A DNA stretch of 23,088 nt, from IMG/VR virus record IMGVR_UViG_2563366797_000001. One strand, written 5' to 3'. Origin of the DNA: a virus. Taxonomy: Duplodnaviria > Heunggongvirae > Uroviricota > Caudoviricetes. The notes under the pieces are model-generated. The model did not search any database. It was given only the letters and a program-made list of their open reading frames with translations, and was not told where the DNA came from. Within the stretch, counting starts at the first letter, position 1. The number at the start of each line of letters is the position of its first letter. Below are positions 1,772-23,088 of this stretch, piece after piece. The translations under genes and the position numbers were made by a program.

Positions 1772-2445
1772 TGGCACCCACAATTTATCACCGTATCGAC
1801 GGTACCAAATACAGGAATGTCTGGGTTGTTGGTGATCTGCATGGTTGCTACACCAGACTGATGTCCGAACTCCATCGTGTGGATTTTGACCCGGCGCAGG
1901 ATTTACTGATATCGGTCGGCGACCTTATCGATCGCGGTACTGAAAATGTCGAATGTCTGGAACTATTGCAGATGCCCTGGTTCAGGGCAGTGATGGGGAA
2001 CCATGAGCGGCTGATGATTGATGCGTTAAGTCCAGATGGCAACGTGAATAACTGGCTAATGAATGGCGGTCAATGGTTCTTCATGCTGGACGCTGATCAG
2101 GAAATATTAGCCAGGGCGCTGGTGGAGTTGGTAAGACGACTGCCCTATATCATTGAGTTGAACACCGGGCAAGAAACTATCGTTATAGCCCATGCCGACT
2201 ATCCGGATAATGAATATCAATTCGGTAAGGAGGTGCCGCTTTTCAACGTTGTCTGGGCGCGCGAGCGTATCAGTGATTCGATGGATGATATTGGTGGCGA
2301 AATTTCTGGCGCAGATCGTTTTATCTTTGGTCACACTCCGGTGAAAAGCCCGAAGACATTCTGGAATCAGCATTATATCGACACAGGTGCCGTATTTTGC
2401 GGAAACCTGACATTGATGAAAGTGAAAGGTGATGGTGCAGCATGA
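1768..2445 (+). CDS. Ser/Thr protein phosphatase, lambda PPase / PrpA-PrpB family (metallophosphoesterase)
   Basis: Near full-length match to recalled lambda phosphatase: [44 protein letters not shown] at 1768 overlaps the upstream stop (ATGA); 1753 is an alternative start. Confidence 0.85.
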
Positions 2446-3143
2446 AGATTGCTTTAGTTCTTCGCTCTGGTGGTGACTATAACGCTTCCGATGTGCAGTG
2501 GCTGGTTAATCAACTGCCAAAAGGCTATGAAATTATTTGCCTGACAGACCTGAAGCGTTTACATGTACCTGGCGTCAAAGTTGTCCCATTGATCAACCAG
2601 TGGCAAAAGTGCCGTGGCTGGTGGGCGAAAATCGAGTTGTTCCGACCGGATATAACCGATGATCTGTTCTATCTGGATTTGGACACGGTTATTGCCGGTG
2701 ATATACGCCCAATCCTAGAGAATCCACCAACCAGCTTCACCATGCTTAGGGATTTTTACCATCCACAATATCGTGGCAGCGGTGCCCTGTGGATACCAAA
2801 TAGTGTAAAAGCGCATATCTGGAGTGCATTCTGGCAAGATCCGGAAGGTTGGATTGCTCGTTGTGTTACTACTGAATGCTGGGGTGAGCAGGGGTTTTTG
2901 CGGAAGGTTATGGGTGATGATACACCAGCATTTCAGGATCTGTATCCGGGATGGTTTGTAAGTTACAAGGCCGATGTTGTGGAACCTGGTTCGAAATATG
3001 CGAGCGCGCGTTACTCCAGGGGGAATGGGGCATTACCAAAAGACTGCCGAATAATCTTTTTCCACGGCAAACCGCGACCTCGCGAAGTGTCAGAGGATTG
3101 GCTTCCCCTTATCAGCTCATTTTTTGAGCGAGAATCAGAATAA
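2442..3143 (+). CDS. GT-A fold (GT8-like) nucleotide-sugar glycosyltransferase
   Basis: N-terminal strand [12 protein letters not shown], DxD-type motif [14 protein letters not shown]-terminal FFHGKPRP resembling the GT8 H.G..KPW motif. ATGA start-stop overlap with the phosphatase gene. Confidence 0.5.
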
Positions 3144-3144
3144 T

Positions 3145-3161
3145 ATTGCTCTAATAATTCC
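3145..3161 (+). promoter_or_regulatory. C1 operator-like site
   Basis: ATTGCTCTAATAATTCC, two bases after the glycosyltransferase stop codon. Confidence 0.55.
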
Positions 3162-3169
3162 ATATTTTT

Positions 3170-3199
3170 AAAACGTGATGTACACTCATCACGTTTTTT
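3170..3199 (+). terminator. Intrinsic terminator hairpin (bidirectional-looking) between two inverted operator sites
   Basis: AAAACGTGATG-TACACT-CATCACGTTTT followed by T-run; preceded by T/A run on the other side. Confidence 0.55.
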
Positions 3200-3210
3200 A
3201 TTAGAGCAAT
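3194..3210 (-). promoter_or_regulatory. C1 operator-like site (inverted relative to 3145-3161)
   Basis: Minus-strand reading ATTGCTCTAATAAAAAA. Confidence 0.55.
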
Positions 3211-3224
3211 CTATAAGGTGCACT

Positions 3225-3443
3225 ATGTGGCCATTCCGACGGAAATATCACTACTGGCTGATCGCCTTTGTTACGCCGACCGGCGGTATCAGGCATGTCA
3301 TCACCAGGTATCGCAACAAGAGACTCACCTTAGCCAGAATTTTACAGGCTGCCATAGGTGAGGGACTGGATACAAATTGCGTAGTCCTTCCACCTTCATA
3401 CTTAGGAAAAATGACCGAAGCACAAGCTAATACGGAACTTTGA
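3225..3443 (+). CDS. Hypothetical protein (72 aa)
   Basis: ATG with AAGGTG about 7 nt upstream, directly after the operator site. No recognisable motif. Confidence 0.3.
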   Translation: MWPFRRKYHYWLIAFVTPTGGIRHVITRYRNKRLTLARILQAAIGEGLDTNCVVLPPSYLGKMTEAQANTEL

Positions 3444-3602
3444 AATGAGCACTTCAGCACAAAACCAATCAATCGAAAATGTATCTAGAGGAAACTGCGG
3501 CAAGAAGACTTCTCGATGTTTGCTATGCACGTAGCGATGCATGGGAAAAAGAGAACGGCGGCACTATTTACGTTCGCTGATAGTTACAGTGTCACTTTTA
3601 AT

Positions 3603-3633
3603 GCTGGTGGAGTGCTCCCACCAGCATTTTTTT
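3603..3633 (+). terminator. Rho-independent terminator
   Basis: GCTGGTGG-AGTGCTC-CCACCAGC followed by ATTTTTTT. Confidence 0.55.
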
Positions 3634-3652
3634 CGTCCAATGAGGAGGGCAT

Positions 3653-4159
3653 TTGAGTATTTTCAATAAACACGCACACCAGGAACGTCCGTACATCGTC
3701 ATAGTAGATATTGATGGGACGATATCAGAGGCAACGGAAGACAGGCTGCATTTACTTCCACCACCTGGCAAAGGTGCATTAACAGAGCACTGGAACGAGT
3801 TTAACCTTGCCTGTGACACTGATGCTCCCATCACTCCAGTTATTGATATGGTGCGCCAGTTGTCCGGCATTTACACCCTCTGGTTTGTAACCGGGCGCTG
3901 TGAGATAGCCAGGGATAAAACACGAGCCTGGTTGCGTAAGCACGTAACAAATGGGGCTGAGCCTTTGCTATCTATGCGTCCTGCCACCGATGACAGAAAT
4001 GACGGTCCAGCAAAGATTGATCTCCTGAAGAAAATTGGTCTAAGTAAAATTGCGTTCGCGCTGGAAGATAAGATTGAAGTGGCGCGTGTTTTCAGGAGTC
4101 ACGGCGTACTTACGTTAATGGTCAGGGAGTATGAAAACGCGCTTCTCCATCAACAATAA
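3653..4159 (+). CDS. HAD-superfamily phosphatase-like protein
   Basis: TTG start with strong GAGGAGGG Shine-Dalgarno. HAD motif I VIVDIDGTI (DxDGT), motif II LWFVTGR, acidic motif FALEDK. Confidence 0.5.
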   Translation: MSIFNKHAHQERPYIVIVDIDGTISEATEDRLHLLPPPGKGALTEHWNEFNLACDTDAPITPVIDMVRQLSGIYTLWFVTGRCEIARDKTRAWLRKHVTNGAEPLLSMRPATDDRNDGPAKIDLLKKIGLSKIAFALEDKIEVARVFRSHGVLTLMVREYENALLHQQ

Positions 4160-4175
4160 TTGCTCTAATAAATCT
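4159..4175 (+). promoter_or_regulatory. C1 operator site with promoter-like TTGATT immediately downstream
   Basis: ATTGCTCTAATAAATCT followed by CTTGATTTTT; the same operator-TTGATTTTT arrangement recurs at 18642. Confidence 0.6.
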
Positions 4176-4257
4176 TGATTTTTAAAACAGAGAAAGTGAA
4201 AATAAAAACATGCCGCAAGGCGCGGCATGTATCCAATCAATCACAGGAGCTGAAAAT

Positions 4258-4344: not shown

Positions 4345-4423
4345 GGGGAGTATATTAGCCATTTGGAACCCCACGGTCTCTTGCGGGTTTAATTAAGAAC
4401 CCGCAAGAAAAATACGAATTGGG

Positions 4424-7400
4424 CTATATTTTTCCGCCTACGCCTTTAAACTTCTCAATAAACGAGACGATTTTCTGGAAAACTGCCTGTTTTTTCGTTT
4501 TATATTGCGGATTCAACGGACTAAGTTTTGGTAATGTTTCGTTTAATTCTGTGCCATTTTCGGTGGCGTATTCGCGTTTTAAAGACGTGCGAATATAGCG
4601 TTTTGCTGCATCTTCATTGAGATTTTCTTCTTTTATCAATGCTTCTGCTTCACGTTGCTGTTCGCGTTGAGCAAACGTAAAGAATGCCTCAATGATACTG
4701 GCTTTGTCTGGTAAATCATCCAGGTTCGTTTGCTGAATAAAATCGACCACCAGGCCCTCTTTCGCCCGGTTCCCCAGGCTTGAACGAATTAAGCGTTTGA
4801 CCTCTTCGATCATTTCGCCCTTGCCTTTATTTTGTCTATTGTGTTCGAAAATCAGTCCAAGGATATAATCCAGGTTTATTTCCTGAGACTTCAGCAAATC
4901 GACCTCAAAAACTACGTCATCCCAGTCAGTGGTTGATTTCTCTTTTTTCTCAGCTTCTTTCTCACGGCGCTGCCAGTCGCGAATATCGTTATAGGCAGAA
5001 CGATAATCCTGAATCTTGCGATCAGCAGGGAGACGAATTGTTTGCAATTCAGCGAACTTTTCATTATCCACATAATGTTCTGCTTTGAATTTTTCTACCG
5101 CAACAGGATCGCTAAGATCGATTTGTTGCAGGGCTTTTAGCGTGGCAAATTCATCATAGTTTTGCAGGATGTTCTCGGCACGCAGGTATTCGCCAAACAG
5201 TTTAACGAAGTCTTTCTTCTCTTTTTCACTTTCAATACTGGTAGGGTCAGGGAACCGTTGTTCCAGTTCTGAAACTACTGTCATGAAGCCGCGTTTAGCT
5301 TCACCAGTGGCAGCATCAGTAAAGCCTTCCATATACTCTGCATAACTCTTTTCTAAAACCACATTTTTGGTATTTTTGTCACCAAACAGCGTTATGGCAT
5401 CAATGGTTGAGCGTTCCAGATCCCGGAACGTGACAATATTACCGAAGGTTTTAGTCGCGTCATAAATGCGGTTGGTGCGGGAGAATGCCTGCATCAGGCC
5501 GTGAAAACGCAAGTTTTTATCGACGAATAGCGTGTTTAATGTTGGAGCATCGAAGCCGGTTAAAAACATCCCCACGACAATTAGCAGATCGATATCCTGA
5601 TTTTTAACCCGCTGGGCTAAATCACGATAGTAGTTCTGAAAACCGTTACTGTCGGTGCTAAAGTTAGTTTTAAAATGGCTGTTATATTCACGAATTGCAG
5701 CGTCCAGAAACTCTTTAGCACTGCTGTCCATTGCGCTGGTATCAAAAGTTTCATCGGAAATTTCACCAATGGCATTTTGTTCTTCATTGGCGGCAAAGGA
5801 GAAGATTGTCGCAATACGCAGCGGTTTATAGGTAGCCGATTTATTAGCGGCTTCTTCTTGTAACCGTTTAAACGTCGCATAATAGGCTTTCGCGGCATCC
5901 ACGCTGCTCACTGCCAACATAGCATTAAAACCTTTTGAGCCAGGGAAGGTACGGTGGGTTTTCTGGCGGAAATTATTCAGAATATATTGCGTGATTTCCT
6001 GAATACGCATGGGATGAAGAAACGCCTGCTGATTTTCAGCCGCACTCAGTTTTTTCTCGTCAGTTTCTGTCTCTAAAGACTTAAACTGTGGCCGCACATC
6101 GTTGTAGTCCACCTTGAATTTGAGCACTTTTTCGTCACGAATCGCATCGGTAATTACATACGAATGCAATTCACGACCAAATACGCTGGCGGTTGTTTCT
6201 GAGCCTAAGGCGTTTTCCGGGAAAATAGGGGTGCCGGTAAAACCAAACTGATAATAGCGTTTGAATTTCTTCTTCAGGTTTTTCTGCGCTTCTCCAAACT
6301 GGCTGCGGTGGCATTCATCAAATATAAACACCACTTGCTGATTATATACAGGCAGATCGCTTTCTGCTTTCATCAGGTTATTGAGTTTCTGAATAGTAGT
6401 GACGATAATTTTGTTATCGTCCTTATCCAGATTTCGTTTAAGACCTGCGGTATTTTCCGAGCCGTTGACGCTGTCTGGCGAAAAACGCTGATATTCCTTC
6501 ATGGTCTGGTAATCGAGGTCTTTCCTGTCGACCACAAAGAAGACTTTATCAATAAAGTCCAGCTCTGTTGCCAGACGCGCGGCTTTAAAGCTGGTGAGGG
6601 TTTTACCAGAACCGGTAGTGTGCCAGATATACCCACCGCTTTCCGGTTTTGACCAGTTCTTCGCTGTAAAGGAACTCTTAATTTTCCACAGAATGCGCTC
6701 GGTGGCGGCAATCTGGTACGGTCGCATTACCAGTAGTGTCTGACTGCTGTCAAAAACGCTGTAGTTCACCAGAACATTAAGCAGAGTATGTTTCTGGAAA
6801 AAGGTAGCGGTAAAGTCTTTGAGGTCTTTAATCAGTGTATTGTCTGATTTAGCCCAGTTCATGGTGAAGTCAAAACTGTTTTTATCGCGCTTTGTGGTGT
6901 TGGCAAAATAACGGGTATCAGTGCCGTTGGAAATGACGAACAGCTGCAGATACTTAAACAGGGAATTTTCGCTGTTAAAACTCTCTTTACTGTAACGATG
7001 TATCTGGTTGAAAGCCTCACGAATCGCCACCCCGCGTTTTTTTAGTTCGATTTGCACCAGCGGTAAACCATTAACCAGGATCGTGACGTCATAACGGTTA
7101 GCATGAGAACCCGTCTGTTCAAACTGCTGGATAATCTGCACCTTATTGCGCATGAGATTCTTTTTATCTATCAAATAGATGTTCTCAAGACGCTCGTCAT
7201 CAAAAATAAAGTCGCAAATATAGTCGATATGGATTTTACGGGTCTTATCCAGAATGCCATCGCTCGGGTTATCCAGATACTGCTCCGTGAAACGCCGCCA
7301 CTCGCTGTCATTAAACACCACACCATTGAGGTTCTGAAGCTGTTCCCGAACATTGGCTAGCATCGCCGACTGTGATTTTACGGATATAAATTCATAGCCC

Positions 7401-7540
7401 TGATTCCGCAGGTCCTGAATCAGTTCACGTTCCAGGTCCGATTCGCTCTGGTAGCTGTCGCCTGTTTGCTCAGCTTTGATGTACTTATCAAGGACGATAA
7501 AGTTATTGGATTCAGCAATGGTGTGTGTTTGATGAGTCAT
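4424..7540 (-). CDS. hsdR: Type I restriction enzyme R subunit (HsdR)
   Basis: 1038 aa; Walker [18 protein letters not shown]-box-like [11 protein letters not shown], helicase motifs; last gene of the M-S-R operon. Confidence 0.95.
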
Positions 7541-7661
7541 AGCGCATCCTTTGTGCCGTCTGGCAAGGGCCGGAAGGGAGTTAAGGGCGACTTCCGGCGT
7601 GTAGAAAATAGTCTATATACTGACCGGATGTTAAGGTGGTCCGGTCTGTAAAAATGCTCAA

Positions 7662-8288
7662 TTAATTACTGGCTGTTTCAGGTTTTGGGAAACTGAACAG
7701 TAAATCACGATAGTACTCGTATTGTTTCTGGCGCAACTCGATTTCACGCGGGAGACCTTCGGTGATGGAGTTGGTCAGTGTGTCGAATTTGTCCAGAATT
7801 CGCACGATTTCAGACTGGATGGCAAGGGATTTTTCCGGATTATCCGGGCAGGGGATTGGGATTTTTTTTTGAGAATAATTACTAATCCATTGGCGTTTAT
7901 GGTCTCCCTCTGCGAATTCACTTGGTAATGTATTGAGCCAATAGTAAACATATTTCAGTAAGGTTTTATTATCATCACATGATGTAACCATTTTCATGGC
8001 CGATGATTTTGCCTTAAAGTCAAAATCCACCCATTTATTAGCGGTGGTGAAATCATCAAAAATTATTACAGGTGCCTTTGATGCCTGATAAATACCATGA
8101 GTCTCATTTGTGTATCCAAGAATAAATGTTTTTCCGGCAGTAAGAACCGGTATGGTATATGTGTCGTGATAATCTTTTGCTTTTACCAAATACTTTGTTG
8201 GCTGTTCATATTTGGTTATTTCCCCCAATGGCAACCACTCAACTTCAACCCCATCCAGCAATTTTTCCAGATAACTCATCTCGCTCAT
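7662..8288 (-). CDS. hsdS: Type I specificity subunit (HsdS), short single-TRD form
   Basis: 208 aa; start overlaps the hsdM stop by 4 nt (coupling); position between hsdM and hsdR; length is consistent with one target-recognition domain plus a conserved region. Confidence 0.8.
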
Positions 8289-9847
8289 TTCTGCACCTCG
8301 CAGCCTTCAATTTCAGCCACAATCGCATCAATATCTTTGCGCAACTGGTCGATTTTGCTGACCGTGGTTTTCAGCTCAGCATTCAGCTCACCGATATCGA
8401 TAATTTCGCGAGTATCTTTCGCTTCAACATAACTGCTCACCGACAGGTTATAGTCATTCGCGACAACAGTCTCAAACGCAACAGATTTCGCCAGATGGGC
8501 AACATCTTCCTTGCCGGCAAATACCTGCATAATCTGTTCGATATGGGCATCGGTCAGGATATTGTTGTTAGTCTCTTTTTTGAACAATTCGCTGGCATCA
8601 ATAAACTGAACTTTGGTATCCGTTTTATGTTTAGACAGCACCAGAATATTGACGGCAATGGTGGTGCCAAAGAACAGGTTCGGTGCCAGTGAAATCACGG
8701 TTTCGACATAGTTATTGTCGACCAGATATTGACGGATTTTCTGCTCTGCGCCGCCACGGTAAAAAATACCCGGGAAGCAGACAATCGCAGCACGACCTTT
8801 GGCCGAAAGATAGTTCAGCGCATGTAGTACAAACGCAAAGTCAGCTTTGGATTTGGGGGCCAGGACGCCAGCCGGGGCAAAACGTTCATCGTTAATCAGC
8901 GTCGGGTCATCGCTGCCAATCCATTTCACCGAATACGGCGGGTTAGAAACGATGGCATCAAACGGTTTTTCATCTCTGAAGTGTGGCTCAGTCAGTGTAT
9001 TACCCAGCTTGATATCAAACTTGTCGTAGTTGATGTTGTGCAAAAACATGTTCATACGTGCCAGGTTATAGGTTGTATGGTTGATTTCCTGACCAAAAAA
9101 GCCTTCTTCGATGATATGGTTATCAAACTGCTTTTTAGCCTGCAACAACAGTGAGCCGGAACCCGCTGCCGGGTCGTAGATTTTGTTAACGTTGGTCTGC
9201 CCGTGCATAGCCAGTTGTGCAATCAGCTTGGAGACGTGCTGCGGTGTAAAGAACTCACCGCCTGACTTACCGGCATTTGCCGCATAGTTAGAAATCAGGA
9301 ACTCATAGGCATCACCGAACAGGTCAATCTGATGTTCGTTGAAGTCACCAAGTTTTAACCCTTCAACCCCTTTCAGAACCGCAGCCAGGCGGGCATTTTT
9401 ATCTTTAACGGTGTTACCCAGGCGGTTACTGGTGGTATCGAAATCAGCAAACAAACCTTTGATGTCTGCTTCTGAAGGGTAGCCGTAAGCAGAACTTTCG
9501 ATAGCAACGAAGATGCTGTTTAAATCTGCGTTCAGTCTGTCATTGGTATTTGCTTTCGCAGCTACGTTGCAGAAAAGCTGACTTGGGTAGATGAAGTAGC
9601 CTTTGGTTTTGATGGCATCGTCTTTAATGTCATCAGTAATTACGCTGTCATCCAGTTTCGCATAACAGATGCTGTCATCACCGGCTTCAATATAGCTGGA
9701 AAAATTTTCGCTGATAAAACGGTAGAAAAGCGCGCCCAGAACGTATTGCTTAAAATCCCATCCATCGACCGAACCTCTGACATCGTTAGCAATTTGCCAG
9801 ATTTGACGATGAAGCTCTGCACGTTGTTGAATACTTGTCATTTTCAT
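8285..9847 (-). CDS. hsdM: Type I N6-adenine DNA methyltransferase (HsdM)
   Basis: 520 aa; NPPY motif ([11 protein letters not shown]), AdoMet-binding region ([10 protein letters not shown]), typical HsdM N-terminus. Confidence 0.95.
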
Positions 9848-9986
9848 CCACTTATTTCAGGCTTATGTAATTGGCGGTGATTCTACAGCAACTTGGATGC
9901 TTTAGCAGTTCGGACATTAGGCTACGAATGACCTGCCTAGAGGTTTGTTAAGCCGCAAAGTGCTGGTGCTTTATGTCTGTGAAGTT

Positions 9987-10017
9987 TATAATTGTGTACA
10001 CATAACGAGTACACGAG
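9987..10017 (+). promoter_or_regulatory. phd-doc promoter/operator region
   Basis: TATAAT at 9987-9992 followed by perfect palindrome TGTGTACACA (9993-10002) and GAGTACACGAG directly upstream of the phd ATG. Confidence 0.55.
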
Positions 10018-10023
10018 GTATTT

Positions 10024-10245
10024 ATGCAATCCATTAACTTCCGTACCGCGCGGGGCAACCTTTCTGAAGTGCTCAACAATGTTGAGGCCGGGGAAGAGGT
10101 TGAAATCACCCGCAGAGGCCGTGAGCCAGCAGTAATTGTCAGCAAGGCTACTTTTGAAGCCTACAAAAAAGCGGCGCTGGATGCTGAATTTGCATCCCTG
10201 TTTGACACCCTGGACTCCACCAACAAGGAACTGGTTAACCGATAA
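10024..10245 (+). CDS. phd: Phd antitoxin
   Basis: 73 aa, [39 protein letters not shown]..., matches recalled P1 Phd; stop overlaps the doc start. Confidence 0.95.
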
Positions 10246-10625
10246 TGAGGCATATATCACCGGAAGAACTTATTGCGCTTCATGATGCGAATATAAACCG
10301 CTACGGCGGCCTGCCGGGAATGTCTGATCCGGGTAGGGCAGAGGCCATTATCGGGAGAGTTCAGGCCAGAGTTGCCTACGAAGAGATCACCGACCTTTTC
10401 GAAGTCTCCGCCACCTACCTGGTGGCTACGGCGAGAGGGCATATATTCAATGATGCCAATAAGCGTACCGCGCTAAACAGTGCGCTGCTATTTCTACGCC
10501 GTAACGGGGTGCAGGTATTTGATTCACCTGAACTGGCAGACCTTACTGTAGGCGCTGCGACTGGCGAGATATCTGTATCTTCTGTCGCCGACACGTTACG
10601 TAGATTGTATGGTTCTGCGGAGTAG
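10245..10625 (+). CDS. doc: Doc toxin (Fic-fold kinase)
   Basis: 126 aa, [17 protein letters not shown]...[23 protein letters not shown], matches recalled P1 Doc. Confidence 0.95.
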
Positions 10626-10629
10626 ATTA

Positions 10630-10809
10630 ATGGCACGTAAATACAACAAATTGTCCCGTGAAGCGTTAAAGATGCTTCTTGATGGCGTGAGTCGCCGCGA
10701 GGTAAAGCAATACCTGGCTGGTAAGCAAATTGGTGCCAGGACCGCTATTGCTGTGTTATGCCGTCAGGAAATGGTTGTGCTTAAACAGAGAATGCCGGGC
10801 AGCATATAA
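10630..10809 (+). CDS. Small post-doc protein (PdcA-position), hypothetical
   Basis: ATG 5 nt after the doc stop with GGAG upstream; 59 aa MARKYNKLSREALKMLLDGVSRREVKQYLAG. Confidence 0.4.
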   Translation: MARKYNKLSREALKMLLDGVSRREVKQYLAGKQIGARTAIAVLCRQEMVVLKQRMPGSI

Positions 10810-10836
10810 AGCCCAATCAGTGATTAAAGGTGTGAT

Positions 10837-11880
10837 GTGAAAGCCGTAATTACTCCCTTTGTACAGAAAGAACTTGGCCTCGCCACGTTCAAAGTGGATC
10901 AGGAGGTCAGAAAGCTGGTGGAGGCTGGCCGTAAATTTATTATGGAGCCGGTGCCGCGTGAGTTAATCGAGCACATGGACGACGGCCTCGTTGCTTCCGA
11001 GCAAACTATAGCAACAAATGAGGCGTTGCAGCCGTTTTTTAACAGCGATGAACTGTTTCGCCGTATTGGTGGAATTGACGCGCTGGTGGCGTGGTTGCGC
11101 AGGAAAGAGGGGCAATGCCAGGCCGCAGATCGTAGCTGGTGTGACAACCATATTGTCCACGCTGAACGAGACAATAGCGCGGTGTTGTTGTGCTGGCATC
11201 ACGATAACCATTACCGGATGCGTGGTTTTAATGAGCTGAAAGAAACGCTGCACAATAATCGCGTTAACTGGATACTGGATGTCGCCCGTCAGGAAATGGG
11301 CCTTTCAGATAGCCATGATTTAAGTATTCAGGAGCTGTGCTGGTGGGCTTTCATGCGTAACATGATGCACCTGATGCCGGAAGAAGTCTGCCGCATATCA
11401 ATAAATAAGATGAAGGCTGCTCCGCAGGATAGCGGACCTCTGAAAGAGGCGGATATTCGCCCGTATGACGATCGCGCTACAGCATATGTTCAGATGATGG
11501 AAGAACGCGCCGCGCCGATGCGTGCAAAAGTATGCCCTGTGGATGTTGACTCCGACCCAGGTATGGCGCATTTCAAAATACCAAAACTTCAATCGCTAAA
11601 ATTGCCCGAGTACATGGACTTTGTGGCTTCCCGTCCATGCTGTGGCTGTGGAGCTGCGGGAGCTGGCGCTCACATTACGCCTTATATCGTTCGTCATAGT
11701 CGATTATGCGCGCATGACATTTACGCAATTCCTCTGTGCCAGTCATGCCAGCGTGATATTGAGCGTGACCGCGATAATTGGGAGAAGACGCACGGTAGGC
11801 TGGCGATGCATCAACGATTGTTCTTTGATTACGCGCTTGGAGTCGGCGCTATCACAAGTTACTCGTCGAGCGTTAGATAA
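10837..11880 (+). CDS. Hypothetical Cys-rich protein (PdcB-position)
   Basis: 347 aa, GTG start with AAGGTG upstream; C-terminal cysteine cluster (CCGCGAAG...CAHD...CQSCQRD) suggests metal binding. Family not recognised. Confidence 0.5.
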
Positions 11881-11881
11881 A

Positions 11882-11898
11882 ATTGCTCTAATGTATTG
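11882..11898 (+). promoter_or_regulatory. C1 operator site upstream of the lpa-position gene
   Basis: ATTGCTCTAATGTATTG, directly after the stop of the preceding gene. Confidence 0.6.
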
Positions 11899-11968
11899 CT
11901 ATTTCTTTAATCGATGGTATTATATTCCACGTTGATTAGTTGACATGGGCTAATCAGTAGGTGACAGG

Positions 11969-12283
11969 ATGTTACTTAACTGGCAGGGACGCCACTTCAT
12001 GGAAATAAATCACTCACGAATAACATCGTACGAGATTGCGAATTACATGATCCGCACTAAATCTCTTCTATCAGCGAAAGAACTCGCAGCAATTCTTGAA
12101 AAGGAATACCCGCATCTGGATGTCGATAAGCGCGATGTTTATCTGCGCTTAAAAGCTATCGCTGTGTCTAAGTATTCGTCTGTTTTGATTGATGACAGTA
12201 CGAACGAAAGCGTGAAAATAACTGGTCAGTGCTGGAAGCAGCTGAATTCATCGAGGCGCATGGCGGGAAAGTGCCGCCCCTGA
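11969..12283 (+). CDS. Possible late-promoter-activator (Lpa-position) protein
   Basis: 104-aa ORF downstream of a C1 operator; assignment by position only. Confidence 0.3.
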
Positions 12284-12600
12284 TGCTGGAGCAAATCAAA
12301 GCCGATCTGCGTGCTCCTAAGACCAATACCGATGATGAGGAAAGGCAAACAGCCGTCGGTGGCCCTTCTCTTGAAGATCTGGACAAAGTTGCGCGAGAAC
12401 GGGCCGCCAACCGCCGCGCCGATGCCGCATTGTGGATTGAGCAGCGTAGGGAAGAAATCGCCGATATCGTTGATACAGGCGGTTATGGAGATGTTGATAC
12501 TGAAGGTGTATCAAACGACCCATGGCTGGAACAAGACCTGGACGAAGACGAGGAGGAAGACGAAGAAGTTACCCGCAAGCTATACGGGGATGATGATTAA
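12229..12600 (+). CDS. pacA: PacA-like terminase small-subunit C-terminal remnant
   Basis: 123 aa from GTG, acidic C-terminus ([11 protein letters not shown]); stop overlaps the pacB ATG (TAATG). Frame closed upstream at 12193. Far shorter than the recalled ~45-kDa P1 PacA. Confidence 0.4.
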
Positions 12601-12989
12601 TGGCCAGAAGTTGCGTAACGGATCCACGTTGGCGCGAGCTGGTGGCGCTATATCGTTATGACTGGATTGCGGCCGCTGATGTTTTGTTCGGCAAAACACC
12701 TACCTGGCAGCAGGATCTGATTATTGAGTCTGTGCAGGAACAGGGTAGCAAGACATCTGTTTCGTCTGGTCACGGTACCGGGAAATCAGACATGACTTCT
12801 ATCATGATCATGTTGTTCATAATCATGTATCCCGGTGCCCGCGCCATTATCGTTGCGAACAAAATTCAGCAGGTAATGACCGGTATATTCAAGTACATCA
12901 AGATAAACTGGGCTACTGCCACCAGCCGTTTTCCATGGCTTGCTGATTATTTTGTTCTGACAGAAACCGCTTTCTATGAGGTTACTGGT
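12600..12989 (+). pseudogene. pacB: pacB (terminase large subunit), N-terminal part, interrupted by IS2
   Basis: Walker [10 protein letters not shown]; reading frame runs into the IS2 end at 12990 and resumes in frame at 14326. Confidence 0.8.
12985..12989. repeat. IS2 target-site duplication, left copy (CTGGT)
   Basis: CTGGT immediately outside the IS2 terminus; identical copy at 14321-14325. Confidence 0.85.
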
Positions 12990-13000
12990 TGGATTTGCCC

Positions 13001-13906
13001 CTATATTTCCAGACACCTGTTATCACTTAACCCATTACTGGCTTGCTGCCGTAGATATTCCCGTGGCGAGCGATAACCCAGTGCACTATGCGGATGCCAT
13101 TCGTTATAATGCTCGAACGCCTCTGCAAGGTTCTTTGCTGCCGTTAACCCGTCTGGTTTGGGCATGACACTGATGTAGTCACGCTTTATCGTTTTCACGA
13201 AGCTCTCTGCTATGCCGTTACTCTCCGGACTCCGCACCGCCGTGCTCTTCGGTTCAAGCCCCAACATCCGGGCAAACTGCCGTGTTTCATTAGCCCGGTA
13301 GCATGAACCATTATCCGTCAGCCACTCTACTGGAGACGCCGGAAGCTCGTTGCCGAAGCGGCGTTCCACCGCTCCCAGCATGACGTCCTGTACTGTTTCA
13401 CTGTTGAAGCCGCCCGTAGTGACCGCCCAGTGCAGTGCCTCACGGTCACAGCAGTCCAGCGCGAACGTGACTCGCAGTTTTTCTCCGTTATCACAGCGGA
13501 ACTCGAACCCGTCAGAGCACCATCGCTGATTACTTTCTTTCACAGCCACTCTGCCTGTATGTGCCCGTTTCGATGGCGGTACAGCAGGTTTTCGCTCAAG
13601 CAACAGCGCATTCTGGCGCATGATCCGGTAAACACGTTTGGCATTGATCGCAGGCATACCATCAAGTTCTGCCTGTCTGCGAAGCAGCGCCCATACCCGA
13701 CGATAACCATACGTGGGCAGCTCTCCGATAACATGGTGTATACGGAGAAGCACATCCGTATCATCAGTGTGACGACTGCGGCGGCCATCCATCCAGTCAT
13801 CGGTTCGTCTGAGAATGACGTGCAACTGCGCACGCGACACCCGGAGACAACGGCTGACTAAGCTTACTCCCCATCCCCGGGCAATAAGGGCGCGTGCGCT
13901 ATCCAC
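13001..13906 (-). CDS. insD: IS2 transposase OrfB (InsD)
   Basis: 301 aa, DDE integrase-type sequence (...WCSDGFEF...LTDNGSCY...). Confidence 0.9.
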
Positions 13907-14229
13907 TTTTTTGCCCGTCCATATTCAACGGCTTCTTTGAGGAGTTCATTTTCCATCGTTTTCTTGCCGAGCAGGCGCTGGAGTTCTTTAATCTGCTTCA
14001 TGGCGGCAGCAAGTTCAGAGGCAGGAACAACCTGTTCTCCGGCGGCGACAGCAGTAAGACTTCCTTCCTGGTATTGCTTACGCCAGAGAAATAACTGGCT
14101 GGCTGCTACACCATGTTGCCGGGCAACGAGGGAGACCGTCATCCCCGGTTCAAAACTCTGCTGAACAATTGCGATCTTTTCCTGTGTGGTACGCCGTCTG
14201 CGTTTCTCCGGTCCTAAGACATCAATCAT
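13864..14229 (-). CDS. insC: IS2 OrfA (InsC)
   Basis: [41 protein letters not shown]...; helix-turn-helix N-terminus; start taken at MIDVL (121 aa). Confidence 0.9.
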
Positions 14230-14320
14230 CTGCTCTCCAATGACTAGTCTAAAAACTAGTATTAAGACTATCACTTAAATAAGTGATACTGGTTGTCTGG
14301 AGATTCAGGGGGCCAGTCTA

Positions 14321-14325
14321 CTGGT
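14321..14325. repeat. IS2 target-site duplication, right copy (CTGGT)
   Basis: Identical to 12985-12989. Confidence 0.85.
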
Positions 14326-15420
14326 AAAGGTGTATGGACTGTAGTACCGAAGGGCTTTCGTCTGGGAAGTGAAGAAGTTCTCGCCGGTGAACACGCAGAT
14401 CATCTTCTGTATATTATCGATGAAGCCTCCGGTGTCAGTGATAGAGCTTTCGGTATCATCACCGGTGCTCTTACCGGACAGGATAACCGCATCTTATTAC
14501 TGTCACAGCCTACACGCCCAAGCGGCTATTTCTACGATACTCACCATAAACTGGCCAAGCGTCCTGGTAACCCAGATGGCGTTTATACGGCGATCACGCT
14601 TAACAGTGAGGAATCACCGCTGGTAACGTCAGAATTTATCAAAATGAAGCTGGCGGAGTACGGCGGGCGTGATAACCCTATGTACATGATTAAGGTACGC
14701 GGCCTATTCCCTAAATTACAGGACGGCTTCCTTCTTGGACGTGATGAGGTTGAACGTGCGACGCGGCGGAAAGTCAAGATTGCCAAAGGATGGGGCTGGC
14801 TTGCATGTGTGGACGTTGCTGGTGGTACAGGACGGGATAAGTCCTTTATCAATATCATGATGGTGTCCGGCCAGCGAAATAAACGCCGTGTAATCAACTA
14901 TCGAATGCTGGAATACACAGACGTTACAGAAACGCAGCTTGCCGCCAAAATTTTCGCAGAATGTAATCCTGAGCGATTCCCCAATATCACCATAGCGATA
15001 GACGGCGATGGCCTGGGTAAAGCAACGGCGGATCTGATGTACGAGTATTATGGTATTACCGTACAGCGTATACGCTGGGGTAAAAAGATGCATAGCCGTG
15101 AAGATAAGAGCCTGTACTTTGATAAACGTGCTTATGCCAACGTTCAAGCCGCAGAGGCCGTAAAATCTGGTCGTATGAGACTGGATAAGGGTAATGAAAC
15201 TATTGAGGAAGCGTCGAAAATCCCTGTAGGGATTAACTCCGCAGGTCAATGGAAGGTGATGAGTAAGGAGGATATGAAGAAAAAACTCAACCTGCACTCA
15301 CCAGACCATTGGGATACATATTGTTTCGCTATGCTGGCGGATTATGTTCCCCAGGACGAAGTGCTTAGCGTCGAAGACGAAGCGCAGGTTGATGAAGCTC
15401 TGGCATGGCTTAATGAATAA
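14326..15420 (+). pseudogene. pacB: pacB (terminase large subunit), C-terminal part
   Basis: 365 codons in frame with the N-terminal fragment once IS2 and one duplication copy are removed; reconstructed length about 495 aa. Confidence 0.8.
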
Positions 15421-15423
15421 ACA

Positions 15424-15440
15424 CTTGCTCTAATAAATTG
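15424..15440 (+). promoter_or_regulatory. C1 operator-like site heading the antirepressor module
   Basis: CTTGCTCTAATAAATTG, followed by TTGACT and a possible -10. Confidence 0.55.
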
Positions 15441-15572
15441 TGTTTTTTGACTGCCGATGTTACATTGAACCTGACCTCTTGCGCCTTGAGGCATTTTCGG
15501 TTTATGCTTATCAGGCACCTCATTAAAACGGGTGCCGGGATTGAGACCCCGGATAATGTCAAAGGCGACACA

Positions 15573-15594
15573 GACGCCGAAAGCGTCTTTTTTT
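15573..15594 (+). terminator. Intrinsic terminator-like hairpin inside the antirepressor leader
   Basis: GACGC-CGAAA-GCGTC followed by T7; flanked by complementary GACACA/TGTGTC. Confidence 0.5.
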
Positions 15595-15779
15595 GTGTCA
15601 TGCCATCGCACAGCCATACGTAGCGTTTAGCTCCGAAATCAATGGTAGTGCTGGCTGGGCTGCCGAAAGGCAGGCCGGTTCCCTTTGACGCCGGTAGTCT
15701 CAACCCAGTCAGTGCTACCGCCATTGAGATTGAGACCTCACGCGGTAGCTCCTTAACTTAGTCAAAGGAGGCTGCCATT

Positions 15780-16001
15780 ATGGCTACTGTCCCTACCCCA
15801 ATTCATCCTGAATTTATCTGGCGCTTTTACTCCTGCCAAAAACGTCACTATCACTTCGTTATTGCACCGACAGAAGATGAGGCCCATTCTCAGCTTCCTG
15901 ACGCCCCATGTATTTTCTCTGCCCGTTTTTCCACTGATTCACGCAATTCTCTCAGTTACTGGTGCCTCCCTGTTAACGCTTCTGCTCAGGAGGGACTATG
16001 A
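15780..16001 (+). CDS. Small protein translationally coupled to the antirepressor gene (Icd-like position)
   Basis: 73 aa; strong AAGGAGG Shine-Dalgarno; stop overlaps the downstream ATG (ATGA). Confidence 0.4.
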   Translation: MATVPTPIHPEFIWRFYSCQKRHYHFVIAPTEDEAHSQLPDAPCIFSARFSTDSRNSLSYWCLPVNASAQEGL

Positions 16002-17116
16002 GAACGTCATTAGTTACCCGTGAAGAGATGATCGAGGCAATTGAACAGCACACTGCCTGTATCAGTACTAGGGATATACCGGGCGTTATTGCCAACTACT
16101 TCATGATCACCAAACAACTTTACCGGAGAAAGGACAAGAACGCAGTTCACCGCATCCTGCTGTCTGATATCCGCGAATACCTGCTCGAACAGGGGCATCT
16201 GAATTACGCAACCGCCGCAGCCGAATCACGCAAGGAGGCACACAGAATGAAAGCAACTAACGTTAAATCAGAAAAAATTCATGCACCTTCAGTTCAGGAA
16301 TCGGAGCTGGTGGTTGTTCAGAATCAGTCTGATGAAATTCCCGTTCTGGAATGGCAGGGAGTGCGTGTAGTGACAACCGAGACTCTTGCTAGAGGGTATG
16401 GGACAGAAACAATCCGTATTCGCCAAAATCATCATGAGAACAAAGTACGCTTTGTTGAAGGGAAGCACTTTTTCAAAGTTGAAGGAGAATCATTGCGCGA
16501 GTTGAAGCACAGAGTAGCTTTAAACTACTCTGTAAAAATTGCTCGCAATGTTCGCTCACTCACCCTCTGGACAGAACGCGGCGCAGCCCGCCACGCTAAA
16601 ATGCTCGAAACCGATCAGGCATGGGCATTCTTTGAAAAACTGGAAGACAGCTACTTCCGACAAAAAGAACAGCAACCGATCGCAATCCCCCAGACGCTTC
16701 CTGAAGCCCTACGCCTGGCTGCCGAACTGGCTGAACAAAAGCAACTTCTGGAACAGAAAGCCCACCAGCTAAATCAGCAGCTGGTGGCCGCCGCTCCTAA
16801 AGTCGATTTTGCCGACCGGGTATCAGTAGCTAAAGGGATCCTGATTGGGAATTTTGCAAAGGTTGTTGGACTTAAGCAAAACGCGCTGTTTGTCTGGTTA
16901 CGGGAGAACGGCATCCTGATAGCGTCCGGTGGACGTAAAAATGTGCCGTTCCAGCAGTACATCAACGCGGGGTATTTCACGGTGAAAGAAGTGGTGCTGG
17001 ATGATGAAGATGGCTACCAGATACGGTTGACGCCTCAATTAACGGGTAAAGGCCAGCAGTGGTTGACGCGTAAACTGCTCGATGCTGGCTTGTTAAAACC
17101 GGTGGCGGCTGAATAA
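15998..17116 (+). CDS. Antirepressor-like protein (N-terminal ORF6N domain, C-terminal KilAC/Ant domain)
   Basis: 372 aa; N-terminal ...WQGVRVVTTETLARGYGTETIRIRQNHHENKVRFVEGKHFF... (ORF6N pattern), C-terminal ...FVWLRENGILI...YINAGYF... (Ant C-terminal pattern); convergent with c1. Confidence 0.7.
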   Translation: MRTSLVTREEMIEAIEQHTACISTRDIPGVIANYFMITKQLYRRKDKNAVHRILLSDIREYLLEQGHLNYATAAAESRKEAHRMKATNVKSEKIHAPSVQESELVVVQNQSDEIPVLEWQGVRVVTTETLARGYGTETIRIRQNHHENKVRFVEGKHFFKVEGESLRELKHRVALNYSVKIARNVRSLTLWTERGAARHAKMLETDQAWAFFEKLEDSYFRQKEQQPIAIPQTLPEALRLAAELAEQKQLLEQKAHQLNQQLVAAAPKVDFADRVSVAKGILIGNFAKVVGLKQNALFVWLRENGILIASGGRKNVPFQQYINAGYFTVKEVVLDDEDGYQIRLTPQLTGKGQQWLTRKLLDAGLLKPVAAE

Positions 17117-17123
17117 TGGAAGA

Positions 17124-17145
17124 ATGCCCGGTTGATGCCGGGCAT
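17124..17145. terminator. Hairpin between the convergent antirepressor and c1 genes
   Basis: ATGCCCGG-TTGATG-CCGGGCAT; no strong T-tract on either side. Confidence 0.35.
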
Positions 17146-17148
17146 AAT

Positions 17149-18000
17149 TTATTGCGCGCTTTCGGGGTTGTCGTTTACTGGCTGCCCCTTCTTGGTTTTA
17201 CGGCTGCGCGTAACTGATGCGGCTGACTTAACCTTTTTCTCTTCGCGAGTGATGGCAATTTGTTTTTTTACATTTTCAATATCTGCCAGGCGATATATTT
17301 TTGCTTGCGGCCAGCGGTCGCAGATGATCGGTTCTATGGAGTCATAAAGGCTAAATTTTGCTTTTTCGAATTCACCGTTGATGATAATTCCATCACGGAG
17401 AGTTTCATCGCAGATAAACACGCCACACAGTGGCACATGGTAACTAACTGATTTACCATCATTGTAGTTAGGGCTACTGGAAATGTAGTGGACGCGCAGC
17501 ATTGTTTCGCTAAAGCCGTGTACGCGCATACGGAATTTTTCATCCTCCGGGTACTGCTTCATTAGCTCTTTTGTTGCTTCCAGGTTCTCTATGTATTTCG
17601 CACTGTGCTCATTGATCCCCGCGCTTTTTTGGATGCGAATGTCCTTATCAATCAGATGAATAATGCGGCCAGCGGTCATGTTGACGCTGTTCACAGCTTC
17701 TGTCTGATAAGTTGTAACCTTACGCACACCGCGAAGGATGTTAGGCACTGGATATAAAATAGTCTTTGGGATATTGAGGTCTGGGTACTGTTCCAGTTCC
17801 CGCGCCATTAAAGTCCATTTATCAATTTCAGCCTGAATGCTGTCAGTTTCTTTGAACGGTAGAACGACAACCGGGCGTACAGGACGACCGTCGCTGGCTG
17901 TATCAACGTGTTGGGCGCGTGCAACAGCTTTTTTTAGAAAGAGATCCCTGAAGCTGACGAACTCCTGGTACAGTTGTTCGCCGTAGACATAATTTATCAT
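17149..18000 (-). CDS. c1: C1 repressor of lysis (primary immunity repressor)
   Basis: 283 aa, MINYVYGEQLYQEFVSFRDLFLKKAVARAQHV..., matches recalled P1 C1; GGAGGAGG Shine-Dalgarno. Confidence 0.95.
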   Translation of the reverse strand: MINYVYGEQLYQEFVSFRDLFLKKAVARAQHVDTASDGRPVRPVVVLPFKETDSIQAEIDKWTLMARELEQYPDLNIPKTILYPVPNILRGVRKVTTYQTEAVNSVNMTAGRIIHLIDKDIRIQKSAGINEHSAKYIENLEATKELMKQYPEDEKFRMRVHGFSETMLRVHYISSSPNYNDGKSVSYHVPLCGVFICDETLRDGIIINGEFEKAKFSLYDSIEPIICDRWPQAKIYRLADIENVKKQIAITREEKKVKSAASVTRSRKTKKGQPVNDNPESAQ

Positions 18001-18094
18001 TGATCCTCCTCCAGAATTGACATGGTCAATAACGCCCGGCTGAGAAAACCGGTCATTACTGACCTATATTATAGAGGGATCAAACAAAAATAAT

Positions 18095-18111
18095 AGATTT
18101 ATTAGTGCATT
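18095..18111 (-). promoter_or_regulatory. C1 autoregulatory operator (Op99a-type)
   Basis: Minus-strand AATGCACTAATAAATCT between coi and c1. Confidence 0.6.
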
Positions 18112-18320
18112 TATTGTGAGTCTAACTGGTTAGTTGCCATGAGATATTCGATTGTGTCAGTGAGGTCATCCAGGTCGTCTTGGGTGATGCGGTACTCCTG
18201 ATTGGATATCTTTGAGTAGTGTTCAGCAATGGCGCGGGCAGCGTCGGTTTCGGCAGGGTCTACAGATAAAGCGTTAGAGCAATGTCTAACGTCGTCGATG
18301 GTTGGTTGAATGAAAGCCAT
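18111..18320 (-). CDS. coi: Coi, C1 inactivator
   Basis: 69-aa acidic protein immediately upstream of c1 on the same strand, as in P1 immC. Confidence 0.85.
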   Translation of the reverse strand: MAFIQPTIDDVRHCSNALSVDPAETDAARAIAEHYSKISNQEYRITQDDLDDLTDTIEYLMATNQLDSQ

Positions 18321-18558
18321 AATTATGTCTCACTGTATTGACAACACAGAGCCTGAAGCTCTGACCTACTGTTTCACCCATGATCCATGCTGGGGTAATC
18401 TAACAACATTGCGCTGTGTGTAAGATGAGCAATGCATAGCTGTAATGCCGTTGTATAAGGTTTCCCTGTTTGCTCATTTCCTTCTGAGCCGCTCTACAAC
18501 GCTGAAGACACATTAAATAGTGAATCCAAAGTCGTATTACGAAACGGCGGCAAAACTA

Positions 18559-18735: not shown

Positions 18736-18754
18736 CTTAAGGGTTATTGAACAT

Positions 18755-18827
18755 GATCAATTCACCTGTAAATCCATACAGTTCAATACCTTATCAGGTC
18801 AAATAGTGATCACTTGATCATTTGATC
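18755..18827. promoter_or_regulatory. Cluster of four GATC (Dam) sites upstream of cre
   Basis: GATC at 18755, 18808, 18816 and 18824, three of them as TGATCA-type repeats within 20 bp. Confidence 0.55.
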
Positions 18828-21777: not shown

Positions 21778-22046
21778 TTGCGTGATCCCTTCATGAACGG
21801 CAGACCGGTACTGATTGAAGCAATGCAGATTTACAAGGAATTGGAACGCCAGAAAGCGATCAAGTTACCGCGCAAGGAATCCGGCAAATACATCCTTCAC
21901 CAAAGCATCTTCGATTCCGAACATGACAAAAAAGGCGATGAATTTTTCAACATCAACTGGAGCGAAATAACGACAGAGCACGTTCTGACGTTGTTATGCT
22001 GCTTCGCAACGGAATATAACAACGTTGCAAGCGCCGACTACATTAG
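21778..22046 (+). pseudogene. Hypothetical gene truncated by IS5 insertion
   Basis: Open frame runs into the IS5 terminus at 22047; the last residues of the 98-aa ORF are IS5-encoded. Confidence 0.3.

Positions 22047-23088
<1,042 letters not shown>

Follow-up and report, generated by a model that had tools for sequence, protein, structure and literature searches.

In phage P1 (NC_005856) and in the inducible phage RCS47 (FO818745), the late activator and packaging genes lie in the order pdcB-lpa-pacA-pacB. Lpa switches on every late promoter of P1. Plasmids related to P1 phage-plasmids have been interpreted as defective phage-plasmids that arose by gene loss, and two that are entered as such, NZ_CP010179 and NZ_CP061751, hold zero head-and-packaging and two tail genes, and two head-and-packaging and four tail genes, respectively (Pfeifer and Rocha, 2024; PMC10879196, Supplementary Dataset 7). 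Plasmid pJIE250-3 is a P1 derivative without lytic functions, and in P1-like plasmids (pTZ20_1P) P1 modules have been rearranged and deleted via insertion sequences (Venturini et al., 2019; PMC6906374). Here we describe a window of 23,088 nucleotides, the whole stretch of DNA that was analysed, from a Caudoviricetes record (IMGVR_UViG_2563366797_000001). It shares the pdcB-lpa-pacA-pacB order with P1 and RCS47, and it falls in the class of P1-derived defective plasmids described by Pfeifer and Rocha (2024), with many P1 homologues and maintenance genes present and essential phage functions lost. The window very probably represents a plasmid that derives from P1, has pacAB alleles of the RCS47/SJ46 type and is no longer a phage, and in which two lesions would bar packaging.

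The pacB gene occupies 12600-15420 on the plus strand, with its ATG at 12600, and is interrupted, unlike its counterparts in P1 and RCS47, by IS2. The original prediction had called a complete element of 1331 bp with recognisable termini, and this is what the alignment shows: the element spans 12990-14320, encodes its transposase on the minus strand, and matches IS2A of E. coli K-12 MG1655 (NC_000913.3, 381260-382590) without gaps over its full length at 97.67% identity. The transposase-proximal end begins with TAGACTGGCC at 14320 and the distal end finishes with GGCAAATCCA at 12990. The end that opens with TAGACTGG is the same as that of K-12 IS2A over 31 nt, and the end that closes with AAATCCA has one mismatch to it in the final 45 nt; aligned to each other, with gaps, the two termini form imperfect inverted repeats. 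The element is bordered by a perfect 5-bp target-site duplication, CTGGT, with its left copy at 12985-12989 and its right copy at 14321-14325, again as first reported. A 5-bp match between two fixed positions would arise by chance once in 1024 cases.

Within the element, orfA (insC, 121 aa) lies at 13864-14229 and orfB (insD, 301 aa, with a DDE/rve domain) at 13001-13906, both on the minus strand, and the A6G motif AAAAAAG of the -1 frameshift is found at 13906-13912. The orfA product matches the NCBIfam family 'IS2 repressor TnpA' with 276 bits (cut-off 229) and Pfam HTH_Tnp_1; the orfB product matches 'IS2 transposase TnpB' with 713 bits (cut-off 597) and Pfam rve. InsC is identical to K-12 InsC1. 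The element is like K-12 IS2A, a member of the IS3 family, in length, terminal repeats, orfA/orfB layout, frameshift site, InsC and the size of its target duplication (ATTAC in K-12), and unlike it at 31 nt and eight InsD residues. Copies that are identical or 99.9% identical to it reside in other E. coli genomes, and it is an ordinary allelic variant. Since its reading frames and ends are intact, transposition activity is plausible.

The insertion splits pacB after codon 130, where the original prediction had placed it. The 5’ part (12600-12989, 390 nt, plus strand) encodes codons 1-130, including a Walker A motif, GHGTGKS, at residues 57-63. The 3’ part (14326-15420, plus strand) encodes the C-terminal half, codons 131-494 and the stop, with a Walker B-like motif, LLYIIDEA, at residues 157-164, and is 98-99% identical to RCS47 pacB at the nucleotide level. 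Removing IS2 and one CTGGT copy in silico brings the two parts into frame and yields 1485 nt, or 494 codons plus a stop with zero internal stops, in keeping with the frame of about 495 codons that had been foreseen. The rejoined protein aligns without gaps to RCS47 PacB (488/494 identical, 98.8%) and also to P1 PacB (435/494, 88%), the alignment that had been proposed as a check. Across the excision junction it reads YEVTGKGVW, as in RCS47 PacB, and EVTGKGVW is also the P1 sequence. It matches PHROG 2, 'terminase large subunit' (E = 4.4e-38); its link to the large terminases comes from PHROGs only, as no Pfam or NCBIfam family was found for it and a PDB sequence search returned nothing meaningful (top match a ribosomal protein, E = 0.93). 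Because the element separates the Walker A from the Walker B-like motif, we infer that pacB must be non-functional and that no functional PacB can be made from the split gene. The surroundings are otherwise familiar: pacA and pacB overlap in TAATG at 12598-12602, as they do in P1 (at 91722), and pacB is followed on its 3’ side by an ant insert and then c1, as in RCS47.

A second lesion lies approximately 790 bp upstream of IS2. Alignment to P1 identifies a 5’ remnant of lpa, the late-promoter activator gene, at 11969-12201 on the plus strand (codons 1-77 of 150). It follows P1 lpa as far as position 4224 of the P1 segment used, then continues in another frame until a stop codon at 12283, and it matches Pfam BPP1_LPA at profile positions 1-64 of 131 only and the Lpa-like PHROG at 1-79 of 148. 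At 12199-12201, codon 77 of lpa is joined to codon 265 of pacA across a deletion of 1100 bp whose ends share 3 bp of microhomology (TAC): these three positions align to the P1 segment at both 4222-4224 and 5322-5324, and RCS47 gives an equal result. What remains of pacA is a 3’ remnant at 12202-12600 on the plus strand (about codons 266-397 and the stop) that has neither a start codon nor a promoter of its own, is 99.6% identical in nucleotide sequence to RCS47 pacA/pacB, and matches PHROG 1711, a terminase, at profile positions 278-402 of 417. Compared with P1 and RCS47, the window has thus lost lpa codons 78-150, the LPpac promoter, codons 1-264 of pacA (two thirds of the gene) and the pac cleavage site with its clusters of GATC-containing hexamers. 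A search for the deleted segment across the 23-kb window and the complete 116-kb plasmid A of E. coli H15, the closest relative, returned no match; an intact lpa-pacAB copy could sit elsewhere on the replicon or in the host. The scan for hexamer clusters recovered both pac clusters of P1, which served as its positive control. A GATC-hexamer cluster at 18754-18823 was weighed as a possible displaced pac but dismissed: it does not resemble the pac segment that was deleted, and its location is upstream of cre.

The two IS2 junctions, the CTGGT duplication and the deletion junction recur without change in three independent complete E. coli plasmids: H15 plasmid A (NZ_CP010179), 2273-PO3 unnamed2 (NZ_CP061751) and p22AR0118B. 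Among records that carry this pacA segment, both junctions occur in two of about 610 in PLSDB and three of about 600 E. coli genomes. The other P1-like records, approximately 600, have neither junction, and in the two collections we found no P1-like record with either lesion in the absence of the other. The exact 40-mer of the left IS2 junction is found in zero GTDB species-representative genomes and zero IMG/VR sequences; its sole match in a scan of JGI/ENA is a human-gut metagenome contig that also has the deletion junction. This contig turns chimeric inside IS2 after position 1229 of the element and supports the left junction and the deletion only. So far the lineage has come from sheep, human urine and human gut, with the three complete plasmids originating from different countries and hosts. 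The flanking sequences at 9950-12989 and 14321-15420 are identical to those of all three plasmids except for one mismatch in one of them, which argues that the lesions are ancestral to a single lineage. A whole-window search of complete E. coli genomes returned no identical record, and the window is distinct from all three plasmids. The closest relative is H15 plasmid A, which aligned to 96% of the window at 99.1%; it is 100% identical from 4400 to 15420, its IS2 copy included.

Recurrent, independent insertion of IS2 at a hot spot in pacB of different plasmids would account for one feature of these data, namely that the IS2 interiors vary among members of the lineage (0, 6 and 38 mismatches) and the flanks essentially do not. 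We nevertheless regard recurrence as very unlikely. Position, orientation and target duplication are common to all members, as is the deletion junction at a distance of 790 bp, itself unique; near-identity of the flanks extends beyond 1 kb in the 3’ direction and to about 3 kb in the 5’ direction; and in the two collections neither lesion has been found alone in a P1-like record. Moreover, the mismatch sets are nested, with 171-435 lying within 171-1181, as would be expected had other resident copies of IS2 left tracts of gene conversion. Independent insertion was therefore rejected as the source of the interior differences, and gene conversion is preferred. The bolder proposal, that the element has been repeatedly overwritten in situ by gene conversion in successive hosts, or else that the PacB fragments act as dominant negatives against incoming P1-like phages, is a long shot. 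If the gene-conversion part were true, the locus would serve as a natural recorder of the lengths of IS-to-IS conversion tracts and of host history.

The original prediction expected the insertion to abolish headful packaging, and proposed that the element may be maintained only as a plasmid or depend on a helper. In principle IS2 could be the only inactivating lesion of a P1-like phage-plasmid that is functional in every other respect, so that headful packaging would return upon precise excision or with a helper providing pacB in trans. In support of such a scenario, rejoining yields an intact pacB whose product is very close to the PacB of an inducible phage, and the window has c1, coi, cre, phd/doc and ant in intact form. 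It is nonetheless highly improbable. The alignment already refutes its assumption of functional pacA, pac and lpa; pmgS carries a 1127-bp deletion; IS1 cuts the P1 segment at 202/203; and virion genes are missing from the relatives. Because pac, most of pacA and half of lpa are deleted, precise excision of IS2 would not bring back packaging. Because pac is missing, the pacase of a helper P1 would have no initiation site on this DNA, and because Lpa is missing, the element's own late genes could not be activated. The earlier view thus stands insofar as pacB must be non-functional, but the insertion is not the sole lesion and, beside a deletion of 1100 bp, is probably not the decisive one. Maintenance as a plasmid only is the most plausible outcome, whereas helper dependence of the satellite type is unsupported, there being neither pac nor Lpa.

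The pieces of pacB could instead have been retained for a function of their own, for example to interfere with the pacase of P1-like phages that enter the cell. The 5’ part runs on into IS2 to form a 158-aa open reading frame (12600-13076), and a 375-aa frame (14293-15420) opens with a TTG inside the IS2 end; both are open and identical in four plasmids, and RefSeq annotates both as proteins. We find retention for function extremely doubtful, as the identity reflects recent common ancestry (zero flank substitutions) and not selection, and open frames are the default pattern after any recent IS disruption. In addition, there is no obvious ribosome-binding site 5’ of the TTG, and LPpac and Lpa are gone. 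Finally, although misassembly is common at insertion sequences and the human-gut contig is itself chimeric past IS2 position 1229, there is virtually no chance that the insertion or the deletion is a repeat-induced assembly artefact, given that three complete plasmids, sequenced independently and from different countries and hosts, show exactly the same IS2 junctions, target duplication and deletion junction.

We favor a history in which both lesions were acquired within one plasmid lineage. A single ancestral transposition of IS2 into pacB would have produced the CTGGT duplication and split the ATPase of pacase B. In the same lineage, illegitimate recombination at the 3-bp microhomology would have removed 1100 bp, placing codon 77 of lpa onto codon 265 of pacA and destroying Lpa, LPpac, PacA and pac itself. 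Among the records searched, none has one lesion alone that would tell which event came first. Judged from sequence alone, the resulting element would be unable to switch on late genes or to cut pac, and no helper could package it starting at pac. The element would persist vertically through plasmid functions of the P1 type, likely phd/doc and cre, which are in the window, and repA/parAB, which are in the closest relative. Conjugative mobilisation (MobH/MobI) is probable in at least one relative.

The rest of the window combines retained P1 genes with further decay. Kept are pmgN-Q, pap, phd/doc, pdcAB, c1, coi, cre and ref; lost, besides lpa, pacA, pac and pacB, is pmgS. The visible 23 kb of the replicon shows the deletion of pmgS and the truncation of the P1 segment by IS1, and the closest relatives are without most head, tail and lysis genes. 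Truncations of the IS1/IS5-family kind are present in the window, with an ISKpn26-like element from 22044. The window differs from the three relatives in having no ISKpn26 copy between coi and cre, in its right end, and in its ant-c1-coi immunity region (15421-18400), which is RCS47-like with ant intact. Since this region differs from that of the relatives, the window element is a mosaic, which outside the window may carry other genes than H15 plasmid A does.

In RefSeq, the two pacB halves and the lpa remnant are labelled 'hypothetical protein' and the pacA remnant 'terminase, incomplete, missing N-terminus'. Our comparison shows that these pieces are a pacB::IS2 insertion and the junction of a Δ(lpa-pacA) fusion. 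Beyond correct annotation the significance is small: the pacB::IS2 locus is a case of ordinary decay in a plasmid lineage that has already been catalogued. It does offer a base-resolved example of P1-like phage-plasmids turning into ordinary mobilisable cargo plasmids, and its two junction sequences are specific markers of one defective lineage. It also shows that taking one visible IS hit as the sole criterion for judging a prophage can overlook a more decisive deletion next to it.

Similar outcomes have been reached elsewhere among P1 relatives. Like pJIE250-3, the window element is a P1-like plasmid kept without lytic capacity. Unlike it, the window carries other lesions, and neither an IS2 in pacB nor an lpa-pacA deletion is described by Venturini et al. 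(2019). The nearer parallel is with the relatives that share both junctions. H15 plasmid A has kept P1-type repA/parAB, nearly all of its head and tail genes are gone, and it carries MobI/MobH (MobH being the relaxase) together with metabolic and stress cargo, consisting of ttr, ars and a heat-resistance locus. The window element is like H15 plasmid A and 2273-PO3 unnamed2 in that phage genes have been lost and cargo and mobilisation genes gained via insertion sequences.

The insertion sequence at 12990-14320 (1331 bp, transposase on the minus strand) is a complete and apparently intact IS2. Direct reading of 12300-15700, together with a script, places it between two copies of the target duplication CTGGT (12985-12989 and 14321-14325). 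Against our reference, the E. coli K-12 copy annotated as 'insertion sequence:IS2A' (NC_000913.3 381260-382590), it is 97.67% identical, ungapped, across all 1331 positions, and both termini match. Two minus-strand ORFs, a 121-aa TnpA/InsC (13864-14229) and a 301-aa TnpB/InsD (13001-13906), overlap at an AAAAAAG motif (13906-13912). They carry HTH_Tnp_1 and an rve integrase core (Pfam) and score 276 and 713 bits against IS2-specific NCBIfam models with curated cut-offs of 229 and 597, respectively. InsC is identical to its K-12 counterpart, whereas InsD differs by 8 substitutions. Full-length IS2 copies are present in 4060 of 5426 complete E. coli genomes.

The element splits pacB, which begins with an ATG at 12600, after 130 codons. 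Joining 12600-12989 to 14326-15420 in silico yields 1485 nt (494 codons plus a stop, with 0 internal stops), and the product aligns gap-free to PacB of the P1-like phage RCS47 (FO818745; 488/494 identical) and of P1 (NC_005856; 435/494). The excision junction reads ...YEVTGKGVW... as in RCS47 PacB, and EVTGKGVW is also found in P1 PacB. The rejoined protein matches the PHROGs family phrog_2, 'terminase large subunit' (E = 4.4e-38), and had zero matches in Pfam, NCBIfam and PDB sequence searches. The original prediction, of a 1331-bp IS2 flanked by CTGGT after codon 130, whose removal restores a frame of about 495 codons, was correct in all its figures. In PacB, residues 57-63 form a Walker A motif (GHGTGKS) and residues 157-164 a Walker B-like motif (LLYIIDEA); IS2 therefore splits the ATPase site in two, and is predicted to inactivate pacB.

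A deletion upstream is more consequential than this insertion. BLAST of window positions 10001-16000 against annotated P1 and RCS47 gave three aligned blocks, not two. In coordinates of the compared P1 locus, 10001-12201 corresponds to 2024-4224 (phd, doc, pdcA, pdcB, Plpa and the first 233 nt of lpa), 12199-12988 to 5322-6111 (pacA from codon 265 on and the 5' part of pacB), and 14383-15420 to 6170-7207 (the 3' part of pacB). The breakpoints have the trinucleotide TAC in common (12199-12201), so 1100 bp are absent relative to both P1 and RCS47, and lpa codon 77 is joined to pacA codon 265. Per the P1 annotation, the lost segment comprises lpa codons 78-150, the late promoter LPpac, pacA codons 1-264, the IHF site and 4/4 mapped pac cleavage positions. 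Two GATC-hexamer clusters flanking pac are also gone; the hexamer scan recovers both in P1, our positive control. What is left of lpa matches Lpa profiles over their first half only (positions 1-64 of 131 in Pfam BPP1_LPA) and reads out of frame after the breakpoint to a stop at 12283, while the pacA remnant lies in a different frame and lacks its own start codon. BLASTN found no copy of the deleted segment in the window, nor anywhere in H15 plasmid A (NZ_CP010179; complete, 116 kb).

All late promoters of P1 need Lpa, annotated there as gene 10, 'Late promoter activating protein', and pac is cut by PacA plus PacB. Given these requirements, the 1100-bp deletion alone would abolish both late gene expression and packaging, and would also take away the cis site needed by a helper's pacase. 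It had been proposed that IS2 should block headful packaging, leaving an element that may be maintained only as a plasmid or depend on a helper. This interpretation is supported in part: pacB is indeed expected to be killed, but IS2 is one lesion among several and probably does not set the limit. With pac gone, packaging through a helper is unsupported, and the element is most plausibly maintained as a plasmid only.

We searched for relatives with 101-bp probes over the left IS2 junction and the deletion junction, scoring full-length matches. In PLSDB, where about 610 records hold the pacA segment, both junctions occur in NZ_CP010179 and NZ_CP061751 (2273-PO3 unnamed2); among complete E. coli genomes, about 600 of which hold that segment, they occur in these two and in NZ_JBRAVH010000003 (p22AR0118B, strain 22AR0118). 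Neither collection contained a record with just one lesion. An exact 40-mer scan added one human-gut metagenome contig with the deletion and left IS2 junction, with 0 matches in GTDB representative genomes and 0 in IMG/VR. In the public records found, the deletion is always accompanied by the insertion, and no such record is identical to the window. Across the four plasmids, a single mismatch, in one relative, is the only difference in the flanks (9950-12989 and 14321-15420). Within IS2, H15 plasmid A, 22AR0118 and 2273-PO3 differ from the window at 0, 6 and 38 positions, respectively, in nested sets. Independent insertions could account for such differences, but are disfavoured by the essentially identical flanks and the nesting, a pattern suggesting that other IS2 copies resident in successive hosts have converted the element in place.

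H15 plasmid A is 100% identical to the window over 4400-15420, and differs in the adjoining ant-c1-coi immunity segment (15421-18400). The window's segment is RCS47-like (98.8%); those of the three relatives are only 96.95% identical to it, with 14 gaps, and all three have an ISKpn26 copy between coi and cre that the window lacks. ant (15998-17116) is intact in the window but carries a frameshift in both H15 plasmid A and p22AR0118B, and in 2273-PO3 only a 135-bp remnant CDS of it is left. The differences within the immunity segment indicate a recombinational mosaic. In the type I R-M locus, hsdS (7662-8288, minus) is half-size in the window and H15, encoding 208 aa with one target-recognition domain, whereas HsdS of relatives has 411 aa in two near-identical halves (178/199 identical) linked by a TAELTAELTAEL repeat, an arrangement typical of type IC systems. 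Recombination between duplicated halves probably produced the short form, whose specificity may be different.

Decay extends further. The putative head morphogenesis gene pmgS was removed at 3486/3487 by a 1127-bp deletion with 2-bp TA microhomology. H15 plasmid A has this deletion and 2273-PO3, 22AR0118 and the metagenome contig do not, so it arose later than the pacB and lpa-pacA lesions. An IS1 end occupies 1-202, and the P1-derived segment begins abruptly at 203; this breakpoint (202/203) lies inside pmgM, where the H15 record also starts. The right end (22044-23088) holds an ISKpn26-like IS5-family element, starting at 22044, beside mat remnants. The type I R-M locus, phd/doc, pdcA/B, ant, c1, coi and cre are intact. 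Upstream of cre, four TGATC[AG]/[CT]GATCA hexamers cluster at 18754-18823; dissimilar to the pac region, this is probably the Dam-methylation-sensitive cre promoter region known from P1. Three small PHROGs v4 families of 'unknown function', phrog_26110 (104 aa), phrog_23417 (105 aa) and phrog_20197 (158 aa), have profile lengths matching truncated ORFs in 11969-12283, 12229-12600 and 12600-13076. PHROGs thus appears to have taken up pseudogene fragments of the lineage as families of phage proteins.

Our findings describe a 23-kb window of the replicon, as read from its sequence. H15 plasmid A, the closest relative, retains P1-type repA/parA/parB and fragments of holin and darA/darB-type genes, and almost all head and tail genes are absent. 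Within positions 1-88400 of NZ_CP010179 lie a MobI/MobH relaxase module, tetrathionate reductase (ttr), ars, an encapsulin/Dyp peroxidase pair and the clpK heat-resistance locus, and the plasmid also has lactate utilisation genes and many insertion sequences; 2273-PO3 unnamed2 resembles it. H15 plasmid A is a phage-plasmid skeleton, with P1 repA/parAB, that has become a stress and metabolic cargo plasmid. The window thus shows a known insertion sequence interrupting a known gene, and its lineage had been catalogued before as defective P1-derived plasmids. NZ_CP010179 and NZ_CP061751 are listed as 'Plasmid', related to P1g1 phage-plasmids, with 0 and 2 head-and-packaging genes and 2 and 4 tail genes, against 7 and 15 in P1 (Pfeifer & Rocha 2024, PMC10879196, Supplementary Dataset 7). 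Another P1 derivative with lytic functions lost has been described (Venturini et al. 2019, PMC6906374).
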